The position numbers and the translations under genes are program-made. Of a DNA stretch of 64,000 nt, positions 4,272 through 64,000 are shown piece after piece. The notes under the pieces are model-generated. The model did no database searches. It was not told the origin of the DNA and was given only the letters and a program-made list of their open reading frames with translations. Every line of letters starts with the position of its first letter. The stretch's first letter is position 1. Origin of the DNA: Candidatus Omnitrophota bacterium (GTDB lineage: Bacteria > Omnitrophota > Gorgyraeia > 2-01-FULL-45-10); the NCBI GenBank assembly GCA_903843285.1, contig CAIMPC010000062.1:8895-72894 (forward strand). The letters are read 5' to 3'.

Positions 4272-4333
4272 GGGACACGTTTAATCTGAAAAAAGGGGAC
4301 ACGTTAAAGGTTGGATTTGCCAAACGGTACAAA
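4272..4333. repeat. copy A of a ~60-nt conserved repeat (GGGACAcGTTTAATCTgAAAAAAGGGGACACGTTaAAGGTTGGATTTGCCAAACGGTACAAaG). It overlaps the last 9 codons of larE.
   Basis: Near-identical copies lie at 59139-59193, 60431-60492 and 61729-61789, with a partial copy at 59718-59771. Confidence 0.7.
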
Positions 4334-40772: not shown

Positions 40773-40857
40773 GTCATCCTGAGCGAAGCCCGATAGGGCG
40801 AAGCGAAGGATCTCTCTTTTAGATTCTTCGTCGGGCTAAAGCCCTCCTCAGAATGAC
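40773..40857. repeat. two REP/MITE-like units (GTCATCCTGAGCGAAGCCCGATAGGGCGAAGCGAAGGATCT and AGATTCTTCGTCGGGCTAAAGCCCTCCTCAGAATGAC)
   Basis: Intergenic, between the M16 peptidase and rpe. Same unit family as at the other REP-like sites. Confidence 0.7.
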
Positions 40858-57845: not shown

Positions 57846-58898
57846 TTATTTAATAGACTTCTCTATTATCTCTTTTTCGATCTTGGCTAAGATCGTCGGA
57901 TTCGCCCTAAGATAGGTCCTGGCGTTCTCCTTACCCTGGCCGAGCTTCTCCTCGCCGTAAATCAGCCATGTCCCGCTCTTCTTCAGAACACCTGTAGCCT
58001 CACCCATATCTAACACACTGCCCGACTTAGAGATCCCCTCGTCGAACATGATGTCGAACTCCGCTTTTCTGAACGGCGGAGCTACTTTATTCTTAGCAAT
58101 AGATGCCCTGACTCTGTTACCCACAGCCTCTTCGCCTTTTTTAAGTGATGCTATTCTGCGCAGATCTATTCTGACCGATGAATAGAATTTGAGCGCCCTG
58201 CCTCCCGGCGTCGTTTCAGGATTTCCGAACATCACGCCTATCTTCTCGCGTATCTGGTTGATAAATATCACGCACGTCTTGGACTTCGAGATAGATCCCG
58301 ATAACTTCCTAAGAGCATGACTCATCAGACGCGCCTGTAATCCCATGTGCGACTGCCCCATCTCACCATCGATCTCAGCCTTCGGAACGAGTGCCGCTAC
58401 AGAGTCAATAACTACCACGTCTAATGCATTAGATTTTACCAGTGTCTCCGCTATATCCAACCCCTGTTCTCCGGTATCCGGTTGAGACATAAGCAGGTTG
58501 TCGAGATTAACTCCCAACATCTTCGCATAAGAAGGATCGAAGGCGTGCTCGGCGTCAATAAAAGCGGCCGTCCCGCCCATTCGCTGCGCATTAGCTATAA
58601 TGCTGAGGGTTAGCGTCGTCTTTCCGCTCGATTCGGGGCCAAATATCTCTATAACCCTCCCTCGCGGCACTCCGCCTACGCCGAGCGCTATATCGAGCGT
58701 CACCGATCCGGTAGGAATCGACGGCACATCCAACTTAAAGTCCTGGCCGAGCTTCATTATAGAACCCTTGCCGAATTGCTTTTCGATGTGCTCTAATGCC
58801 ATCTCGAGCGCTTTGGCTTTATTGGCCTGCACACTATCTTTAACCTCTTTAGGCTGCTCGTGAGCGTCCTCTTTTTCCTTCGATTTTGATTTTACCAT
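57846..58898 (-). CDS. recA: recombinase RecA
   Basis: Walker [10 protein letters not shown] and L1/L2 loops. 350 aa. Confidence 0.9.
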
Positions 58899-59066: not shown

Positions 59067-59193
59067 CCCCCTACTATAAAGACGCTAAAAGGGGTGAAAT
59101 TGTTGCAAAGTATTTTAAAATAGTTTGATTGGGGACAGGTTTAATCTTAAAAAAGGGGACACCGTGAAGGTTGGTTTTGCCAAACGGTACAAG
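59067..59193. repeat. copy B, long form (~125 nt) of the island repeat. It is a direct repeat of 61665-61789.
   Basis: CCCCCTACTATAAAGACGCTAAAAGGGGTGAAATTGTTGCAAAGTATTTTAAAATAGTTTGATTGGGGACAGGTTTAATCTTAAAAAAGGGGACACCGTGAAGGTTGGTTTTGCCAAACGGTACAAG. About 95% identical to copy E. Confidence 0.75.
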
Positions 59194-59566: not shown

Positions 59567-59652
59567 CCTATTGCCATGTCATAGCTTATACTCTGAACAT
59601 ATGCCCTCTACAAGTAAAATGCCTGCATGGGTTGTTTGATCTGACCCCGGAC

Positions 59653-59692
59653 GTCATTCTGAACGAAGCCCAAAAGGCGGAGTGAGGAATCT
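59653..59692. repeat. REP/MITE-like unit (GTCATTCTGAACGAAGCCCAAAAGGCGGAGTGAGGAATCT)
   Basis: Intergenic, between the zeta-like remnant and partial repeat C. Same unit family as at the other REP-like sites. Confidence 0.65.
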
Positions 59693-59717
59693 AGGAGCGG
59701 GATGCACTACTCACTGG

Positions 59718-59771
59718 GAAAGGTTGGATTTGCCAAACGGTATAAACACTGGGAGCATTCCAATAAATGAC
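59718..59771. repeat. partial copy C of the island repeat (GAAAGGTTGGATTTGCCAAACGGTATAAACACTGGGAGCATTCCAATAAATGAC)
   Basis: Shares the 3' tail (…GGGAGCrTTCCAATAAATGAC) with copy D. Followed by a duplicated GACCCCTTTTTTT. Confidence 0.6.
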
Positions 59772-59803
59772 TCTGACCCCTTTTTTTGTGACCCCTTTTT
59801 TTG

Positions 59804-60109
59804 CTAGACGAAAACTTTTTCTTCAACTTTTTTAACTCGACTCGCGAGGCCTTTTGTTTCATGGCTAATGTCCATCACAGCGCTTTTTACCGTATCAAGA
59901 TCCCGCTCGATTCTGTCTAAACGCTGACTATGTCCATCGAGAACGTGTTCAATTCTACCCAAGCGCTGATCATGCCCATCAAGCTTTCTTATTATGATTC
60001 CGTGGCCTTCGGCAATGGTCTGAACCTGCTTACTTATACCCTCTAACAATACTCTGGTTTCGCGGTCAGAGTCTGTGGTCTTATTTTTTGGCGCTTTATC
60101 ATTCTTCAT
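59804..60109 (-). CDS. small heptad-repeat coiled-coil protein, short paralog (101 aa), unknown family
   Basis: Starts with RBS GAGGAG then ATG. It is a paralog of 60537..61010, sharing an identical ~67-nt 5' leader (60110-60176 vs 61011-61077), an identical N-terminus (MKNDKAPKNKTTDS…) and an identical C-terminus (…ERDLDTVKSAVMDISHETKGLASRVKKVEEKVFV). It contains LDGHxQRL heptads. Confidence 0.6.
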   Translation of the reverse strand: MKNDKAPKNKTTDSDRETRVLLEGISKQVQTIAEGHGIIIRKLDGHDQRLGRIEHVLDGHSQRLDRIERDLDTVKSAVMDISHETKGLASRVKKVEEKVFV

Positions 60110-60215
60110 TTACTATTGTCTCCTCGTCGTAAAGTGAATATATCATACCGGGTTATTGAAGTAAACTTATTTTTCACGGGCTCCTGGATGGGGTTGTTTA
60201 ATCCGACCCCCGGAC

Positions 60216-60393
60216 GTCATTCTGAACGAAGGAGCCGAAGGGCGGAGTGAAGCCTGCCTGCCTACTATCGGAGCACCTGCAGGTAGGCAGGAATCTATGC
60301 GTTCAGATCCTTCGGCTCGCCACTTTCAGTGGCGGCCTCAGGATGACATACGCTTCGTCATTCTGAGGAGGGCTTTAGCCCGACGAAGAATCT
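60216..60393. repeat. composite array of three REP/MITE-like units, including one with a long GCCTGCCTGCCTAC…GCAGGTAGGCAGG hairpin insert
   Basis: Units at 60216-60296, 60303-60348 (inverted) and 60357-60393. Confidence 0.65.
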
Positions 60394-60430
60394 AAGGCAC
60401 TTGGATGACGAAGGGGCGCTTCTCTCGTCA

Positions 60431-60519
60431 GGGACAGGTTTAATCTTAAAAAAAGGGACACGTTGAAGGTTGGATTCTGCAAACGGTACAAGTGCTGGGA
60501 GCGTTCCAATAAATGACCC
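60431..60519. repeat. copy D of the island repeat (core 60431-60492 plus the tail shared with copy C)
   Basis: GGGACAGGTTTAATCTTAAAAAAAGGGACACGTTGAAGGTTGGATTCTGCAAACGGTACAAGTGCTGGGAGCGTTCCAATAAATGACCC. Confidence 0.7.
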
Positions 60520-60536
60520 TTTTTTGCTAGACGCTA

Positions 60537-61010
60537 CTAAACGAAAACTTTTTCTTCAACTTTTTTAACACGACTCGCGAGGCCTTTTGTTTCATGGCTA
60601 ATGTCCATCACAGCGCTTTTTACCGTATCAAGATCCCGCTCGATTCTGTCAAAACGCTGACTATGTCCATTAAGAATCTGACCATGCCCGCTCAAGCTCT
60701 GCGTATGCTCATCGAGGATCTGGCCATGTTTATTCAAGCTCTGCGTATGCTCATCGAGGATCTGGCCATGTTTATTCAGAATCTGAGTATGCTCATCGAG
60801 GATCTGGCCATGTTTATTCAGGATCTGAGTATGCTCATCGAGAACATTCTCAATCCTATCCAGGCGTTGACTATGCCCATCAAGCTTTCTTATTATGATT
60901 CCGTGGCCTTCGGCAACGGTCTGAACATGCTTACTTATACTCTCTAACAATACTCTGGTTTCGCGTTCAGAGTCTGTGGTCTTATTTTTTGGCGCTTTAT
61001 CATTCTTCAT
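60537..61010 (-). CDS. small heptad-repeat coiled-coil protein, expanded paralog (157 aa), unknown family
   Basis: Same leader, RBS and termini as 59804..60109. The middle is expanded by 14-aa / 42-bp in-frame tandem repeats (ILNKHGQILDEHTQ)n, giving about 12 consecutive LDxHxQx heptads. Confidence 0.6.
   Translation of the reverse strand: MKNDKAPKNKTTDSERETRVLLESISKHVQTVAEGHGIIIRKLDGHSQRLDRIENVLDEHTQILNKHGQILDEHTQILNKHGQILDEHTQSLNKHGQILDEHTQSLSGHGQILNGHSQRFDRIERDLDTVKSAVMDISHETKGLASRVKKVEEKVFV
60693..60850. repeat. 42-bp perfect or near-perfect tandem repeat, about 3.8 copies, in frame inside the 157-aa gene
   Basis: caagctctgcgtatgctcatcgaggatctggccatgtttatt occurs twice exactly, then two variant units. 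It is absent from the 101-aa paralog. Confidence 0.8.
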
Positions 61011-61248
61011 TTACTATTGTCTCCTCGTCGTAAAGTGAATATATCATACCGGGTTATTGAAGTAAACTTATTTTTCGCAGGCGCCTTTTTTCACGGGCTC
61101 CTGAACATTAATCCGAATGAAATCCTATCCTGCGCTTAGGCTGATCAGGGTGCGGAACCATTAGCTGACGAATCGCCTCGAAGATCATGCCGATATCTTC
61201 ACCATGCTTCTCTATTTTTATTTCAAGCTCGTTCAATTTATTAGATAA

Positions 61249-61626
61249 CTATTTATGGTTTACAATCATTGTTTTTAATCTTACGAAAGCTCGCATTATG
61301 GCAATATTTACCTGAATGGCTCGTTCGCTATTAAGCACGCTAGATAGCATAGCTACACCTTGCTCAGTAAATGCATACGGATTAGCACGTCGGGCTCCAT
61401 CCCAACTTGAAATCGCAATTTGCGATTTCAAGATTGCATGCTCTGCATCACTTAGCTGAAACATAAAATCATTCGGAAATCGCCTTATATTGCGCTTAAC
61501 CTGCTCATTTAACCGCATCACAGGAACCCCGTAAAGCCGCGCCAGATCCATAGAGAGCATAACCTTGTGCCCTCTAATTAAATAGATCTTCCTTTCAATA
61601 ATCTCTTCGGGTATTAAATTACTCAT
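61249..61626 (-). CDS. ORF6N domain protein, terminated early by an in-frame TAG (125 aa as encoded)
   Basis: [21 protein letters not shown]…FPNDFMFQL…[35 protein letters not shown] is a clear ORF6N/KilA-N-like domain. RBS AGAGAGGGAGA precedes the ATG at 61624-61626. The track ORF start at 61704 runs into repeat E and is rejected. Confidence 0.7.
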
Positions 61627-61664
61627 AATGCGTCTCCCTCTCTGTTTATATATACGTGCGTTGT

Positions 61665-61789
61665 CCCCACTATAAAGACGCGAAAAGGGGTGAAATTGTT
61701 GCAAAGTATTTTAAAATAGTTTGATTTGGGACAGGTTTAATCTTAAAAAAGGGGACACGTTGAAGGTTGGATTCGGCAAACGGTACAAG
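61665..61789. repeat. copy E, long form (~125 nt) of the island repeat. It is a direct repeat of 59067-59193.
   Basis: Begins 5 nt after the stop of the large upstream gene and ends 36 nt before the ORF6N start codon. Contains the AT-rich near-palindrome AAGTATTTTAAAATAGTT. Confidence 0.75.
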
Positions 61790-61795
61790 AGTGGG

Positions 61796-64000
61796 TTAGG
61801 CGCTGCGGGAGGCTTTGTCCATTGCGCTGAGCATCTTACTGATGGCTTCGGCGACGTCTCTGAATATCTTAAAGAATCCGAAGTAGCCGGATAGCTTCTT
61901 TATGCTATTATCATTTTCCTTATAGCCTATCGCGACGAACGCGCCCTTCATAATTATCGAGGCAAGCAGGTTAGTCAGGTTAATCTTTTCGACTGCGACT
62001 ACTGTATCGGCATTCATGCCTTTTCTATTGATAAGGGCATATGCCAGGGTGCCTTCACGGCCCTTCTCACGCGTATTCACAGCGTCCGCGCCTATCATAT
62101 TTATCTCATTGCCGGTATCGGTGTCTTCTAATAGGATGGCGATATTGCCAACCTTTACATTATTGGCTTCCATGGCAGACCGTATGGCATCCGATGGATT
62201 AACGCCCTCACCTACCAACACGACAGAGACTCCCGGCACATTCTTCTCGAGCGCGCTTTGCTGTTGGGCATCTCTGGCTATGAGAACCATCCTGGCTACA
62301 TTATTATTCTTCTCGGCATAGCCTAATGCTTCCCGGAATTCTCCACGAAGCTGGCCCTTATCCTTATCGAACACACTATTGCCATCGAACGCCAATATTA
62401 CAGTATCGCGGACTATGCTCGCCCTGTGTAATTTGCCAAGGGCTTCGAAGAGGCCCTCTAAACTGCCCGACTTATCCCTTAACACACCCTCTATCATGGC
62501 GTAAGCGCCGGTCACATTAACATCCTCTTTTGAATATACGCCATTGGCATATGTAAACGTATGCTGTTCCATCAGCTCACCGCTCTTAACAAACGCCGCG
62601 AGCGGCACAGCCGGCATCTTAAGGACCTTAAAACTGCCATCCGGCAATATGACCATCGATCCGGCATCGCCCAGTTTGGCGAAGTTTGCCCTGTCCGCGT
62701 CGAATTCCGCATCATTAGCAGGCATAACGGGATGGGAGTGGATCAACCAGCGCGTATTCGCATTAAACAGGACGGTAGACTTATAGTCATAGGAAGCGGC
62801 TGTAGCGTCAAAGACGATGGCGGCATTCCTGAAGGCATATGCGACCTTACCATCAGATCCGACAGAGAACGCGACCTCGTATAAGCCCTTGCCTATCGCC
62901 GTAGTCATATTGTTCCTTATCGTTTCATCGGGGAAGTCTGCGACATGGCTATCTATATACTCTTTAACCTTATCGCCCACTTTATCGCCTTTTTTGAGCG
63001 CTATATCGAAGCTTCTGCCGCCGATCTCTATCGTGTATGTCATATCCTCAGCGGCGATACCGTTACTTGCCAAACCCTGCATCCTGGTAATCTCGATGGC
63101 CGATTCTCTCGACACCGTATCGACACCACCAACCTTAGTGGCATTTGTAAGGCGTTCGGCTTTGGTCTGAGTCTTTTCGATAATCTTAGTTACGGTTTCG
63201 GGAGTTGCAGGCTCGCCGAGCAGGCTGGACTGAGCCATCATAATGCCGGGTCCGAGCGGCCCAACTCCGATCAATCCGTTTCTGAGCGCATCGATATTTT
63301 CCGGATGCGCTAATCTCTCGCTAATTGGCCCAAAGCTCGGAGCAAATTTGGCTGTGAATTCCGCGCGCTTCTCATCATTAAATTTACTCAAGGCGAGGCC
63401 AAGCGGGTTCTCGCCTGATTTATAACCGAAGAATTCCCTCTGGGTTATCTTATAAAGGTTGTCATGCGTATTAGTAGGTGTCACGGATTCCAATACTTCG
63501 TGGAGTATGTATTCCTGGATAAGCTTATTTCCATAAGGGGTGGGGGCGACCATCTTCGAGAGATATTCGATCACGTCCGCGGCGAGGGCTATTCCACCTC
63601 TCTTACCGAATCCTAAGAGATGCCCTGTGATCGGCTCGACTCTCGCAGTGAAGTATGAGATCATCGCGGCTCTTGTCTCGGGATTATTAAGCTTGCTCAA
63701 CATAGCCAGTGCGTCAGGATAAGAATCTGAGCTTATACCAGCCGGAGGACCTCTATTCATAGCCGTATCAAATAATTGCCTTATAGCCTGAGTCACCGCA
63801 TCCTCGACAACTTTATCTACACCTTCCAATTTCTGCACCAATCCGGAGGCGAATACCGCCTCGATAGACTCAGCGGCGTCTACCCTATCCTTCAGCCAGC
63901 CTTTAGCTATCTCTCCACCTCCGCCGGGTGATACGATAGGAGGAGCCTGCTTCTCAATCGCACTCACCCCCCAATCTACAGTAATTTCTCCTATATTATT
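61796..64000 (-). CDS. large hypothetical protein (at least 723 aa) with no recognisable family. The 5' end is unresolved and may continue past the window edge.
   Basis: Uninterrupted minus-strand frame from the window edge to TAA at 61796-61798. The candidate GTG at 63965-63967 has a poor SD. It contains a WLIHSHPVMPANDAEFD segment that loosely fits the JAMM/MPN H-x-H-x(n)-D signature. Ala/Gly-rich. Confidence 0.55.
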   Translation of the reverse strand, partial: NNIGEITVDWGVSAIEKQAPPIVSPGGGGEIAKGWLKDRVDAAESIEAVFASGLVQKLEGVDKVVEDAVTQAIRQLFDTAMNRGPPAGISSDSYPDALAMLSKLNNPETRAAMISYFTARVEPITGHLLGFGKRGGIALAADVIEYLSKMVAPTPYGNKLIQEYILHEVLESVTPTNTHDNLYKITQREFFGYKSGENPLGLALSKFNDEKRAEFTAKFAPSFGPISERLAHPENIDALRNGLIGVGPLGPGIMMAQSSLLGEPATPETVTKIIEKTQTKAERLTNATKVGGVDTVSRESAIEITRMQGLASNGIAAEDMTYTIEIGGRSFDIALKKGDKVGDKVKEYIDSHVADFPDETIRNNMTTAIGKGLYEVAFSVGSDGKVAYAFRNAAIVFDATAASYDYKSTVLFNANTRWLIHSHPVMPANDAEFDADRANFAKLGDAGSMVILPDGSFKVLKMPAVPLAAFVKSGELMEQHTFTYANGVYSKEDVNVTGAYAMIEGVLRDKSGSLEGLFEALGKLHRASIVRDTVILAFDGNSVFDKDKGQLRGEFREALGYAEKNNNVARMVLIARDAQQQSALEKNVPGVSVVLVGEGVNPSDAIRSAMEANNVKVGNIAILLEDTDTGNEINMIGADAVNTREKGREGTLAYALINRKGMNADTVVAVEKINLTNLLASIIMKGAFVAIGYKENDNSIKKLSGYFGFFKIFRDVAEAISKMLSAMDKASRSA

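Follow-up and report, generated by a model that had tools for sequence, protein, structure and literature searches.

We analyzed a 64,000-nt stretch of DNA from a Candidatus Omnitrophota bacterium (GenBank assembly GCA_903843285.1, contig CAIMPC010000062.1, positions 8,895 to 72,894; hereafter, the window), which carries on its (−) strand two neighboring genes, copy A and copy B, that encode proteins of 101 and 157 aa. The reading we prefer, with a probability of roughly 55%, is that these genes are tandem paralogs belonging to an undescribed, Omnitrophota-type family, and that their products are cytoplasmic, homo-oligomeric coiled-coil rods with conserved ends and, between them, a spacer that varies by whole heptads. 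Both open reading frames (ORFs) had been pointed out in an earlier note on this DNA, and both are present where it placed them. Their positions, and those of the elements directly associated with them, are as follows:

59804-60109, (−) strand: copy A, predicted 101-aa coiled-coil rod protein, the short paralog (ORF list)
60537-61010, (−) strand: copy B, predicted 157-aa coiled-coil rod protein, the expanded paralog (ORF list)
60137-60165, (−) strand: promoter-like site of copy A, the same as that of copy B (DNA alignment)
61038-61066, (−) strand: promoter-like site of copy B, TTTACT-17-TATATT with a TG extended −10 (sequence)
60120-60125, (−) strand: GAGGAG, putative ribosome-binding site of copy A (read from the sequence)
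61021-61026, (−) strand: GAGGAG, putative ribosome-binding site of copy B, 10 nt 5′ of the ATG (read from the sequence)
60594-60947, (+) strand: antisense ORF of 117 aa without an equivalent opposite copy A, taken as a by-product and not as a gene

Judged by their sequences, copies A and B are true tandem paralogs. DNA alignment revealed 100% identity over 110 nt, comprising the 66 nt located 5′ of the ATG and coding nt 1-44, and the two remain 93-96% identical across hundreds of nt. The shared leader, promoter, and ribosome-binding site described earlier are thus real, but the first ~40 residues are not identical as had been stated, since the N-terminal 40 residues differ by four substitutions (D15E, G24S, Q28H, and I32V). 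At the other end, where ~35 identical residues had been noted, 37 are identical, and the final 140 nt of the coding sequence (CDS) are 96.4% identical. With a single indel set aside, 16 coding positions distinguish the two copies, through 7 synonymous and 9 non-synonymous steps (dS 0.12, dN 0.038), and the resulting dN/dS of 0.32 indicates purifying selection on the (−) strand frame. The antisense ORF exists only because the repeat is stop-free in that frame; homologs of copies A and B all match the (−) strand product, which disposes of the suggestion that the antisense ORF might prove to be the conserved one.

The same pair recurs in other assemblies. Specifically, the 157 + 101 arrangement was found in at least six independent assemblies that cover both copies (L001, L003, L004, L005, L007, and one contig from ENA and NCBI with the same gene calls). 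Over up to 2.5 kb, the window DNA is 99.95% identical to L005 and 100% identical to the others. The product of copy B is identical to protein P0003, which is present on 16 contigs, while that of copy A is 99% identical to P0001. Since the identity reaches 93-96% and the arrangement is reproduced in six assemblies, a chance likeness of the two copies is excluded; because independent assemblies built with different pipelines agree, the arrangement is not an assembly artifact, and the paralogy proposed earlier in preference to assembly duplication holds.

The two copies differ in length solely by a 168-nt indel, which corresponds to nt 169-336 of the copy B CDS in the DNA alignment. The repeat regions concerned are the following:

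60675-60842, (−) strand: insertion of copy B, four near-perfect 42-nt units equal to eight heptads (alignment and unit listing)
60633-60884, (−) strand: full 14-aa-periodic region of copy B, six 42-nt units (unit and heptad listing)
59900-59983, (−) strand: matching region of copy A, two 42-nt units (LDGHDQRLGRIEHV and LDGHSQRLDRIERD; unit and heptad listing)

Tandem Repeats Finder reported 3.6 copies of a period of 42 at 60692-60842 with 95% matches. The in-frame 42-bp expansion adding LDxHxQI heptads was therefore correctly recognized, although its units are near-perfect and not perfect; where ~3.8 copies at 60693-60850 had been noted, the insertion comprises four units at the coordinates given above. 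The insertion encodes (LDEHTQ[I/S]L[N/S][K/G]HGQI)x4, its units 1 to 4 being LDEHTQILNKHGQI, LDEHTQILNKHGQI, LDEHTQSLNKHGQI, and LDEHTQSLSGHGQI; a single nt separates units 1 and 2, and units 3 and 4 diverge more. The units on either side of the insertion (LDGHSQRLDRIENV and LNGHSQRFDRIERD) are older and diverged copies of the same 14-aa unit, which gives unit counts of 2 for copy A, 6 for copy B, and 4 for a variant allele, P0002 (see below). The best reading of these sequences is that copy B represents a recent four-unit expansion.

The long coiled coil proposed earlier for the expanded repeat fits the structures predicted for both paralogs, each of which consists of one helix. AlphaFold2, run on the monomers with an alignment of 43-44 sequences, placed residues 10-100 of copy A and residues 10-155 of copy B in a single unbroken helix (mean predicted local distance difference test score of 92.1 and 92.7, respectively), preceded in both by a disordered lysine-rich tail (MKNDKAPKNKTTD). 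With a rise of 0.15 nm per residue, the helix of copy A would be ~14 nm long and that of copy B ~22 nm. From approximately residue 21 onward, the heptad register continues without interruption to the C-terminus (copy A, 12 heptads; copy B, 20 heptads), with position a occupied mostly by Leu or Val and position d by Ile, Val, or His. Since the 56 residues inserted in copy B amount to exactly 8 heptads, the insertion makes the helix longer and leaves the register unshifted. Position d is His in every added heptad; 10 of 11 consecutive core d positions of copy B are His, and this protein contains 13 His residues in total, compared with 5 in copy A.

Because a lone amphipathic helix of 90-146 residues is not a stable fold, the modeled helices of copies A and B probably assemble into homo-oligomeric coiled-coil rods. 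In the GCN4-pLI tetramer, a is Leu and d is Ile, and the dominant pattern of a = Leu and d = Ile seen here would, by analogy, resemble this rule. A Foldseek search of the single-helix model against the PDB returned no match, and a profile search of the PDB returned generic coiled coils alone (DC-SIGNR neck, reovirus sigma-1, adhesin stalks, and tropomyosin). As noted earlier, neither protein has a transmembrane segment: the maximum Kyte-Doolittle mean over 19 residues is 0.45 and 0.43, no hydrophobic or membrane segment was found, and both proteins end in ...KKVEEKVFV. Their sequences also contain no signal peptide, lipobox, or cell-wall anchor.

Copies A and B belong to a sizable family. A sequence search recovered 20 close relatives, relatives at E < 1e-3 comprise 176 representatives at 50% identity, and a family profile search at E ≤ 1e-5 retrieved at least 295 sequence clusters. 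All of the 120 family matches listed are 92-164 aa long, none of those listed is fused to another domain, and their organism names are Candidatus Omnitrophota or Omnitrophica only. Copies A and B likewise fall within the ~90-165 aa that delimit the family and contain no other domain. A scan of one genome per species, seeded with a narrower family alignment, gave 16 loci, 12 of them titled Candidatus Omnitrophota and 4 titled "uncultured Planctomycetia" (3 from one genome). A draft genome holds up to 3 family copies, and tandem pairs occur at loci L013, L025, and L026. On the sequences found here, the family appears restricted to one phylum, almost exclusively to Omnitrophota-type assemblies.

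Within the family, the ends are conserved, and the center is variable and unalignable. The N-terminus follows ...(D)SERETRVLLE.I...VKT.AEGHG.I..KL..HD, and both copies carry, after the Lys-rich tail, the motif (E/Q)(R/K)ETRVLLE-x7-(V/I)KT(V/I)AEGHG-x-I-xx-KL. The C-terminal motif is HE.R(I/V).K(V/L)EEKVF, in which the Arg is invariant and a Glu nearly so; the variant found in copies A and B, GLASRVKKVEEKVFV, retains both (R91 and E96). Across the 43-sequence alignment, E34 and R91 are invariant, and T18, L21, E23, and E96 are nearly invariant. The family was unrecognized in the earlier note and is indeed unnamed: no assignment above the cut-off was obtained in Pfam, NCBIfam, PHROGs, or PADLOC, where the similarity is of the generic coiled-coil kind, with sub-threshold likenesses in NCBIfam, PHROGs, and PADLOC to SMC, Rad50, tape-measure proteins, and ZorA. 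The literature yielded no paper devoted to the family, and two preprints on Omnitrophota giant genes make no mention of ORF6N, coiled coils, or XhlA. The family is thus undescribed; what is new is its restriction to a phylum, its heptad-quantized variation, its hallmark promoter, and the histidine-core variant, while variation of coiled-coil length by tandem repeats is an already known mechanism.

Next, we considered how the length of the rod varies. Near-perfect tandem repeats occur in 62 of 165 relatives (≤260 aa), a proportion inflated by the coiled-coil query, which favors repetitive proteins, and the period is 7 or 14 in 58 of these 62. The repeated sequences (e.g., LDTVEQK x6, HDRRFDS x3, DLISVKS x3, RLDGMDH x5, and DALDVKV x5) are mutually unrelated, indicating that the expansions were independent events, all of which respected the heptad. 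In addition, four pairs of alleles in the family differ essentially only in repeat number, and the alleles differing in unit number come from short-read contigs:

P0003/P0002: 157 and 129 aa, differing by two 14-residue units (copy B of the window)
P0201/P0045: 148 and 127 aa, differing by three 7-residue units
P0187/P0044: 134 and 120 aa
P0091/P0086: 129 and 95 aa, differing by two 17-residue units

The 129-aa allele P0002, on contig L030 from another sample, is 84 nt shorter than copy B. This contig carries its own single-nucleotide polymorphisms (98.7-98.9% identity to the window), which identifies the allele as a separate strain variant. The 157-aa copy, in turn, was also found at 100% identity in L006 and in the JGI contig L032 (over 3.4 kb in the latter), and the four-unit 157-aa allele is identical in nine independent assemblies. 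Consequently, variation at the window locus is slow and strain-level and is not obviously a fast switch. The length-variable locus postulated earlier is therefore supported by the 129-aa allele and by the three further allele pairs of the family, but the nine assemblies with the same allele argue against rapid switching.

Three contigs from other samples mix features of the two copies: in L030, a B-type body follows an A-type upstream flank; in L031, a 101-aa gene ends in B-type sequence on its 3′ side; and L002 (4600-5260) has two 157-aa copies, the second flanked by A-type sequence. The sequences of these mosaics fit gene conversion between paralogs, or else they could derive from chimeric short-read assembly, which is conceivable because stretches identical between copies A and B reach 110 nt.

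The regions upstream of family genes align across many genomes as AAAAATATCTTTACA-N17-TGnTATAnTT-(~12 nt)-AATCGGAGGAnTTATAAATG. When the window and 145 kb of related loci (~209 kb in all) were scanned on both strands, the pattern TTTAC-N14-17-TG[GAT]TA[TC]AnT gave 18 matches, all directly 5′ of family genes, whereas well under one match was expected by chance according to our estimate. Two of these matches lie in the window, and the other 16 are distributed over L008, L013, L016-L019, L022-L026, L028, and L029. The family promoter, TTTAC-N14-17-TGnTAnAnT, is situated ~33 nt 5′ of the ATG, as it is in copies A and B. The sequences suggest that this conserved promoter and leader travel with the family gene and that the promoter is probably strong, which would imply strong expression of family genes.

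Taken together, these observations lead to the following model for the rod that we favor. Each protein would comprise a short Lys-rich N-terminal tail and a continuous amphipathic helix that pairs into a homo-oligomeric rod. The ends of the rod (ETRVLLE...AEGHG.I..KL and HE.RI.KLEEKVF) would be functional or interaction sites, whereas the middle would act as a spacer of variable length, gaining or losing whole heptads (7, 14, or 42/3 residues) when near-identical DNA units slip during replication or recombine unequally, with gene conversion between neighboring paralogs possibly reshuffling it further. In copy B, the four-unit expansion keeps the register and creates a stripe of His at core d positions. 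The gene would be monocistronic and strongly expressed from a near-consensus extended −10 promoter, and its product, having no signal peptide and no membrane segment, would stay in the cytoplasm. A structural role as spacer (or ruler) or scaffold is favored because the ends are conserved, the middle varies in length only, the promoter seems to be a strong one, and neither an enzymatic domain nor a partner gene or an export signal is present.

Several points weigh against this reading. A monomer AlphaFold model of a lone helix is silent on assembly, and the spacer or ruler role is argued from architecture alone. The query bias mentioned above affects the share of repetitive relatives, and the recurrence of one four-unit allele makes the variation slow rather than switch-like. 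Furthermore, L030, L031, and L002 are short or short-read contigs, and their mosaics could be chimeras. Finally, the promoter pattern is a stringent one, and other genes may simply have weaker promoters.

The surroundings of the pair bear on its alternatives. Copies A and B share a 2.6-kb stretch with an ORF6N gene and two small ORFs; recA (57846-58898) lies on one side of this stretch and the C-terminal end of a giant gene on the other. The two larger neighbors are as follows:

61108-61704, (−) strand: ORF6N gene (PF10543, E 2.9e-33; PADLOC candidate PDC-S05, E 9e-52)
61796-63967, (−) strand: C-terminal 723 aa of the giant gene, which runs off the window end (ORF)

Direct repeats of 125 nt, 94% identical, bracket the 2.6-kb stretch (59069-59193 and 61665-61789), so that it looks like an island that was inserted or rearranged between recA and the giant gene. 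Each of them contains a 22-nt palindrome, CAAAGTATTTTAAAATAGTTTG (59106-59127 and 61702-61723), which lies once 5′ of recA and once ~80 nt before the start of ORF6N; from its placement, this palindrome could be a shared operator. The ORF6N gene has an in-frame TAG (61249-61251), also present in all the other assemblies; beyond it, the frame continues for 46 codons that specify the usual ORF6N C-terminal tail (...IFEAIRQLM...), a pattern indicative of read-through or of a very recent nonsense mutation.

Elsewhere, the family gene is always stand-alone with its own promoter. Its neighbors include housekeeping genes (recO, ybeY, fabG, mdh, leuS, recG, and smc) as well as mobile or defense-type genes (ORF6N, HEPN, HTH_3, AbiEii, AAA_14/DUF4143, GIY-YIG, and IS110 and Y1 transposases), and none is conserved, the commonest neighboring Pfam family accounting for 3 of 38 neighbors. 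A BNR/Sortilin-Vps10-type repeat protein, the sole neighbor family seen three times, adjoins the family gene in 3 of ~18 loci, an adjacency that may, to judge from the sequences, reflect the shared synteny of one paralog rather than a functional link:

L018:4561-5922, BNR/Sortilin-Vps10-type neighbor
L020:819-2012, BNR/Sortilin-Vps10-type neighbor
L023:1066-2643, BNR/Sortilin-Vps10-type neighbor

Among the alternatives, the pair could be cargo of a defense or toxin-antitoxin island together with ORF6N and toxin genes, serving as antitoxin, adaptor, or abortive-infection component, with the repeat variation reflecting an arms race. The island shared with the ORF6N gene and small ORFs, its bracketing repeats, and the defense-type and transposase genes at other loci (including two ORF6N genes in L029) speak for this idea, but we consider it unlikely, because no neighbor recurs, many copies lie between housekeeping genes with the gene always under its own promoter, PADLOC matches are weak and of the generic coiled-coil type (best E 6.2e-4), and the ORF6N gene of the window is interrupted by a stop. 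Co-occurrence with ORF6N or toxin genes, raised earlier as a question to be asked of homologs, is not a rule: among ~20 distinct loci, ORF6N adjoins the family gene in only two, the window and L029.

Somewhat more doubtful is a secreted or surface-exposed coiled coil, comparable to streptococcal M protein, PspA, or secretion substrates, that provides antigenic or host-range variation in a predatory or epibiotic bacterium. In-frame variation of repeat number in a coiled-coil rod would be expected of such a protein, and two family loci lie directly downstream of giant "dark" proteins. The giant protein next to the pair is 4036 aa long on the longer ENA/NCBI contig, and an unrelated giant protein of >2000 aa directly precedes the family gene in L008/L015. 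Giant proteins of Omnitrophota have been linked to secretion-system and pilus genes and to a host-dependent lifestyle (bioRxiv 10.64898/2026.06.07.730766). However, export signals and anchors of the kinds listed above are missing from copies A and B, no secretion genes are adjacent in the loci examined, and the two giant proteins (window and L015), in which no Pfam domain was found, have no detectable similarity to each other.

Known stalk proteins offer further comparisons. The DC-SIGNR neck, streptococcal M protein, and PspA share with the family in-frame repeats in a helical stalk, length alleles, and constant ends, and the top PDB sequence match is 3jqh, the neck of the human lectin DC-SIGNR/CLEC4M. 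These proteins, however, are extracellular and have functional end domains and anchors, whereas the family has no signal peptide, anchor, or globular domain, and the likeness in sequence is generic coiled-coil similarity. In Braun's lipoprotein Lpp, trimeric autotransporter stalks, and phage tape-measure proteins, the residue count sets a distance, and weak PHROG and PDB matches are to tape-measure, tail-needle, and adhesin-stalk coiled coils; these offer a possible analogy only, since the family has no lipobox, membrane anchor, or phage context. DUF16 (PF01519), a multi-copy coiled-coil family of Mycoplasma pneumoniae of unknown function, was considered as a home for the pair and rejected. 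It is similarly small, lineage-restricted, and multi-copy and is the second-best Pfam match of copy B, but copy B scores 26.9 bits (E 7.2e-06) and copy A 16.1 bits against a cut-off of 40 bits, the taxon is different, and the match covers the repetitive rod only.

Binding of metal or nucleic acid by the His/Gln-rich heptads had been raised earlier as a possibility. Copy B might accordingly be a histidine-ladder coiled coil, selected for its layers of His, that binds metal (Zn, Ni, or Cu) between helices or senses pH, an idea compatible with the coiled-coil rod that we prefer. Three-stranded coiled coils designed to contain layers of His bind Zn and Cu, and both the His at d of each added heptad and the higher His count of copy B would suit such a role. 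Against this stands the confinement of His-rich repeats to this lineage and a few others, while most family repeats have V, I, or L at d (e.g., LDTVEQK and DLISVKS). We consider selection for His layers doubtful, and as the stripe is lineage-specific, metal binding cannot be the general function of the family.

A further candidate is a phage lysis accessory protein of the XhlA type or a prophage remnant. XhlA of the PBSX-type prophages of Bacillus consists of a coiled coil followed by a membrane anchor and acts with a holin and an endolysin. The earlier note had rejected this likeness, rightly with respect to architecture, even though no Pfam model fits copy A better than XhlA (PF10779), whose coiled-coil part (model positions 3-46) is matched at 26.7 bits (E 6.2e-06). 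Moreover, 12 of 43 family members match PF10779 at E < 1e-3, a distant relative, P0104, has the N-terminal motif of the family followed by a C-terminal hydrophobic segment, and XhlA resembles the family in its small size (~90-100 aa), its coiled-coil sequence, and a C-terminal ...HE.RI..LE.... Nevertheless, the listed family scores all fall below the cut-off of 34.7 bits (copy A, 26.7; copy B, 23.5), the match is confined to the coiled-coil portion of the model (positions 3-46 of 67), copies A and B have no membrane segment, and the conserved ETRVLLE...AEGHG module at the N-terminus of the family is not found in XhlA. P0104 itself has no Pfam match, no holin, endolysin, or other phage gene lies near the pair (its neighbors are recA, ORF6N, and the giant gene), and searches of 2.9 million IMG/VR contigs and 50,697 phage GenBank records yielded no relatives, all of which makes this candidate highly improbable.

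The weakest explanation, an artifact in which the pair is an assembly duplication, the repeat is mis-assembled, or the antisense ORF is the real gene, could appeal to the difficulty that short-read assemblers may have with 42-nt repeats and near-identical paralogs and to the contigs (L007, L030, L031, and L032) that end within shared regions, but it is barely credible given the identical arrangement in at least 6 assemblies from different pipelines, the 16 coding differences in a pattern typical of purifying selection, the missing antisense ORF opposite copy A, and the hundreds of homologs that match the (−) strand frame.

The DNA around the two genes contains several further repeats, of which those belonging to the duplicated units are listed here:

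60431-60520, (−) strand: 3′ flanking repeat element after copy B (CATTTATTGGAAC...ACCGTTTGCAGAATCCAACCTTCAACGTGTCCC; repeat families D5 and D7)
59720-59774, (−) strand: partial 3′ flanking element after copy A (repeat families)
60191-60250, no strand given: repeat closing the duplication unit of copy B (GGGTTGTTTAATCCGACCCCCGGACGTCATTCTGAACGAAGG...GGCGGAGTGA; repeat families D10, D11, and D15)
59629-59685, no strand given: the same repeat closing the duplication unit of copy A (repeat families D2, D9, D10, D11, and D15)

Each duplication unit (~59629-60186 and ~60191-61103) thus consists of promoter, gene, 3′ element, and closing repeat, the latter being of the type GGGTTGTTT.ATC.GACCCC.GGACGTCATTCTGAACGAAG. 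Short interspersed repeats (CCCCGGACGTCATTCTGAACGAAG...GGCGGAGTGA(A/G)GAATCT) flank both copies at 59629-59700, 60191-60300, and 60355-60395, with an internal palindrome at ~60255-60295, and occur also at 40773-40788; placed as they are, these repeats could have brought about the tandem duplication. Directly after its stop codon, copy A has a perfect 15-nt tandem duplication, TGACCCCTTTTTTTG x2 (59774-59803), that copy B lacks.

A repeat located at 3′ ends, reading CTTGTACCGTTTGGCAAATCCAACCTT(C/T)AACGTGTCCCCTTTTTT.AGATTAAAC.TGTCCC in the gene sense, is present in five copies in the window (4306-4333, 59166-59193, 59719-59746, 60465-60492, and 61762-61789), where none would be expected by chance. 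All five lie at 3′ ends of (−) strand genes, namely copies A and B, the giant gene, a gene adjacent to a tRNA, and a 45-aa ORF, and the repeat contains no classical terminator hairpin. In related loci, an apparently non-coding conserved element of ~110 nt extends from the stop codons of family genes (...TTTCCTTCCTAAGTAGTTC..ACCTTGT..TCTGTCTTGTAAAAATCA..GGTGTCTCTATGCC) and is located as follows:

L019:6325-6450, ~110-nt 3′ element
L022:934-1060, ~110-nt 3′ element
L025:780-906, ~110-nt 3′ element
L026:2952-3080, ~110-nt 3′ element
L028, after 435, ~110-nt 3′ element

Partial copies of it were found in L010, L013, L016, L020, and L029. No reading frame is open in all copies of this element, the 3′ flanks fold no better than shuffled sequences (with L019 as a marginal exception), and Rfam identified only tRNAs and one unrelated cobalamin riboswitch in the window and 16 related loci.

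Omnitrophota are widespread, almost entirely uncultured nanobacteria, and many of their genes lack annotation. Should the rods described here be merely another structural coiled coil, the value of the finding would be modest and chiefly annotational. Even so, the family is a tidy natural example of tandem DNA repeats that lengthen a coiled coil with its register unbroken, and the hallmark promoter and the conserved 3′ flank could mark transcription signals of Omnitrophota. As a phylum-restricted, multi-copy, and probably strongly expressed family, these proteins offer a concrete and cheap target for biochemistry and expression surveys, in which natural length alleles are at hand and the oligomeric state, metal binding by the His stripe, and the partners of the ends are approachable. 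A bolder proposal, which we regard as a long shot, is that the rods are an abundant, Omnitrophota-specific ruler of a cytoskeleton-like or scaffold kind, whose ends dock on fixed partners and whose slippage-tuned spacer sets the distance between them; the unequal paralogs (14 and 22 nm) would then provide alternative spacings, and the His core would add metal- or pH-dependent assembly. If this proved true, such rulers would set physical distances within ultra-small, host-dependent cells.

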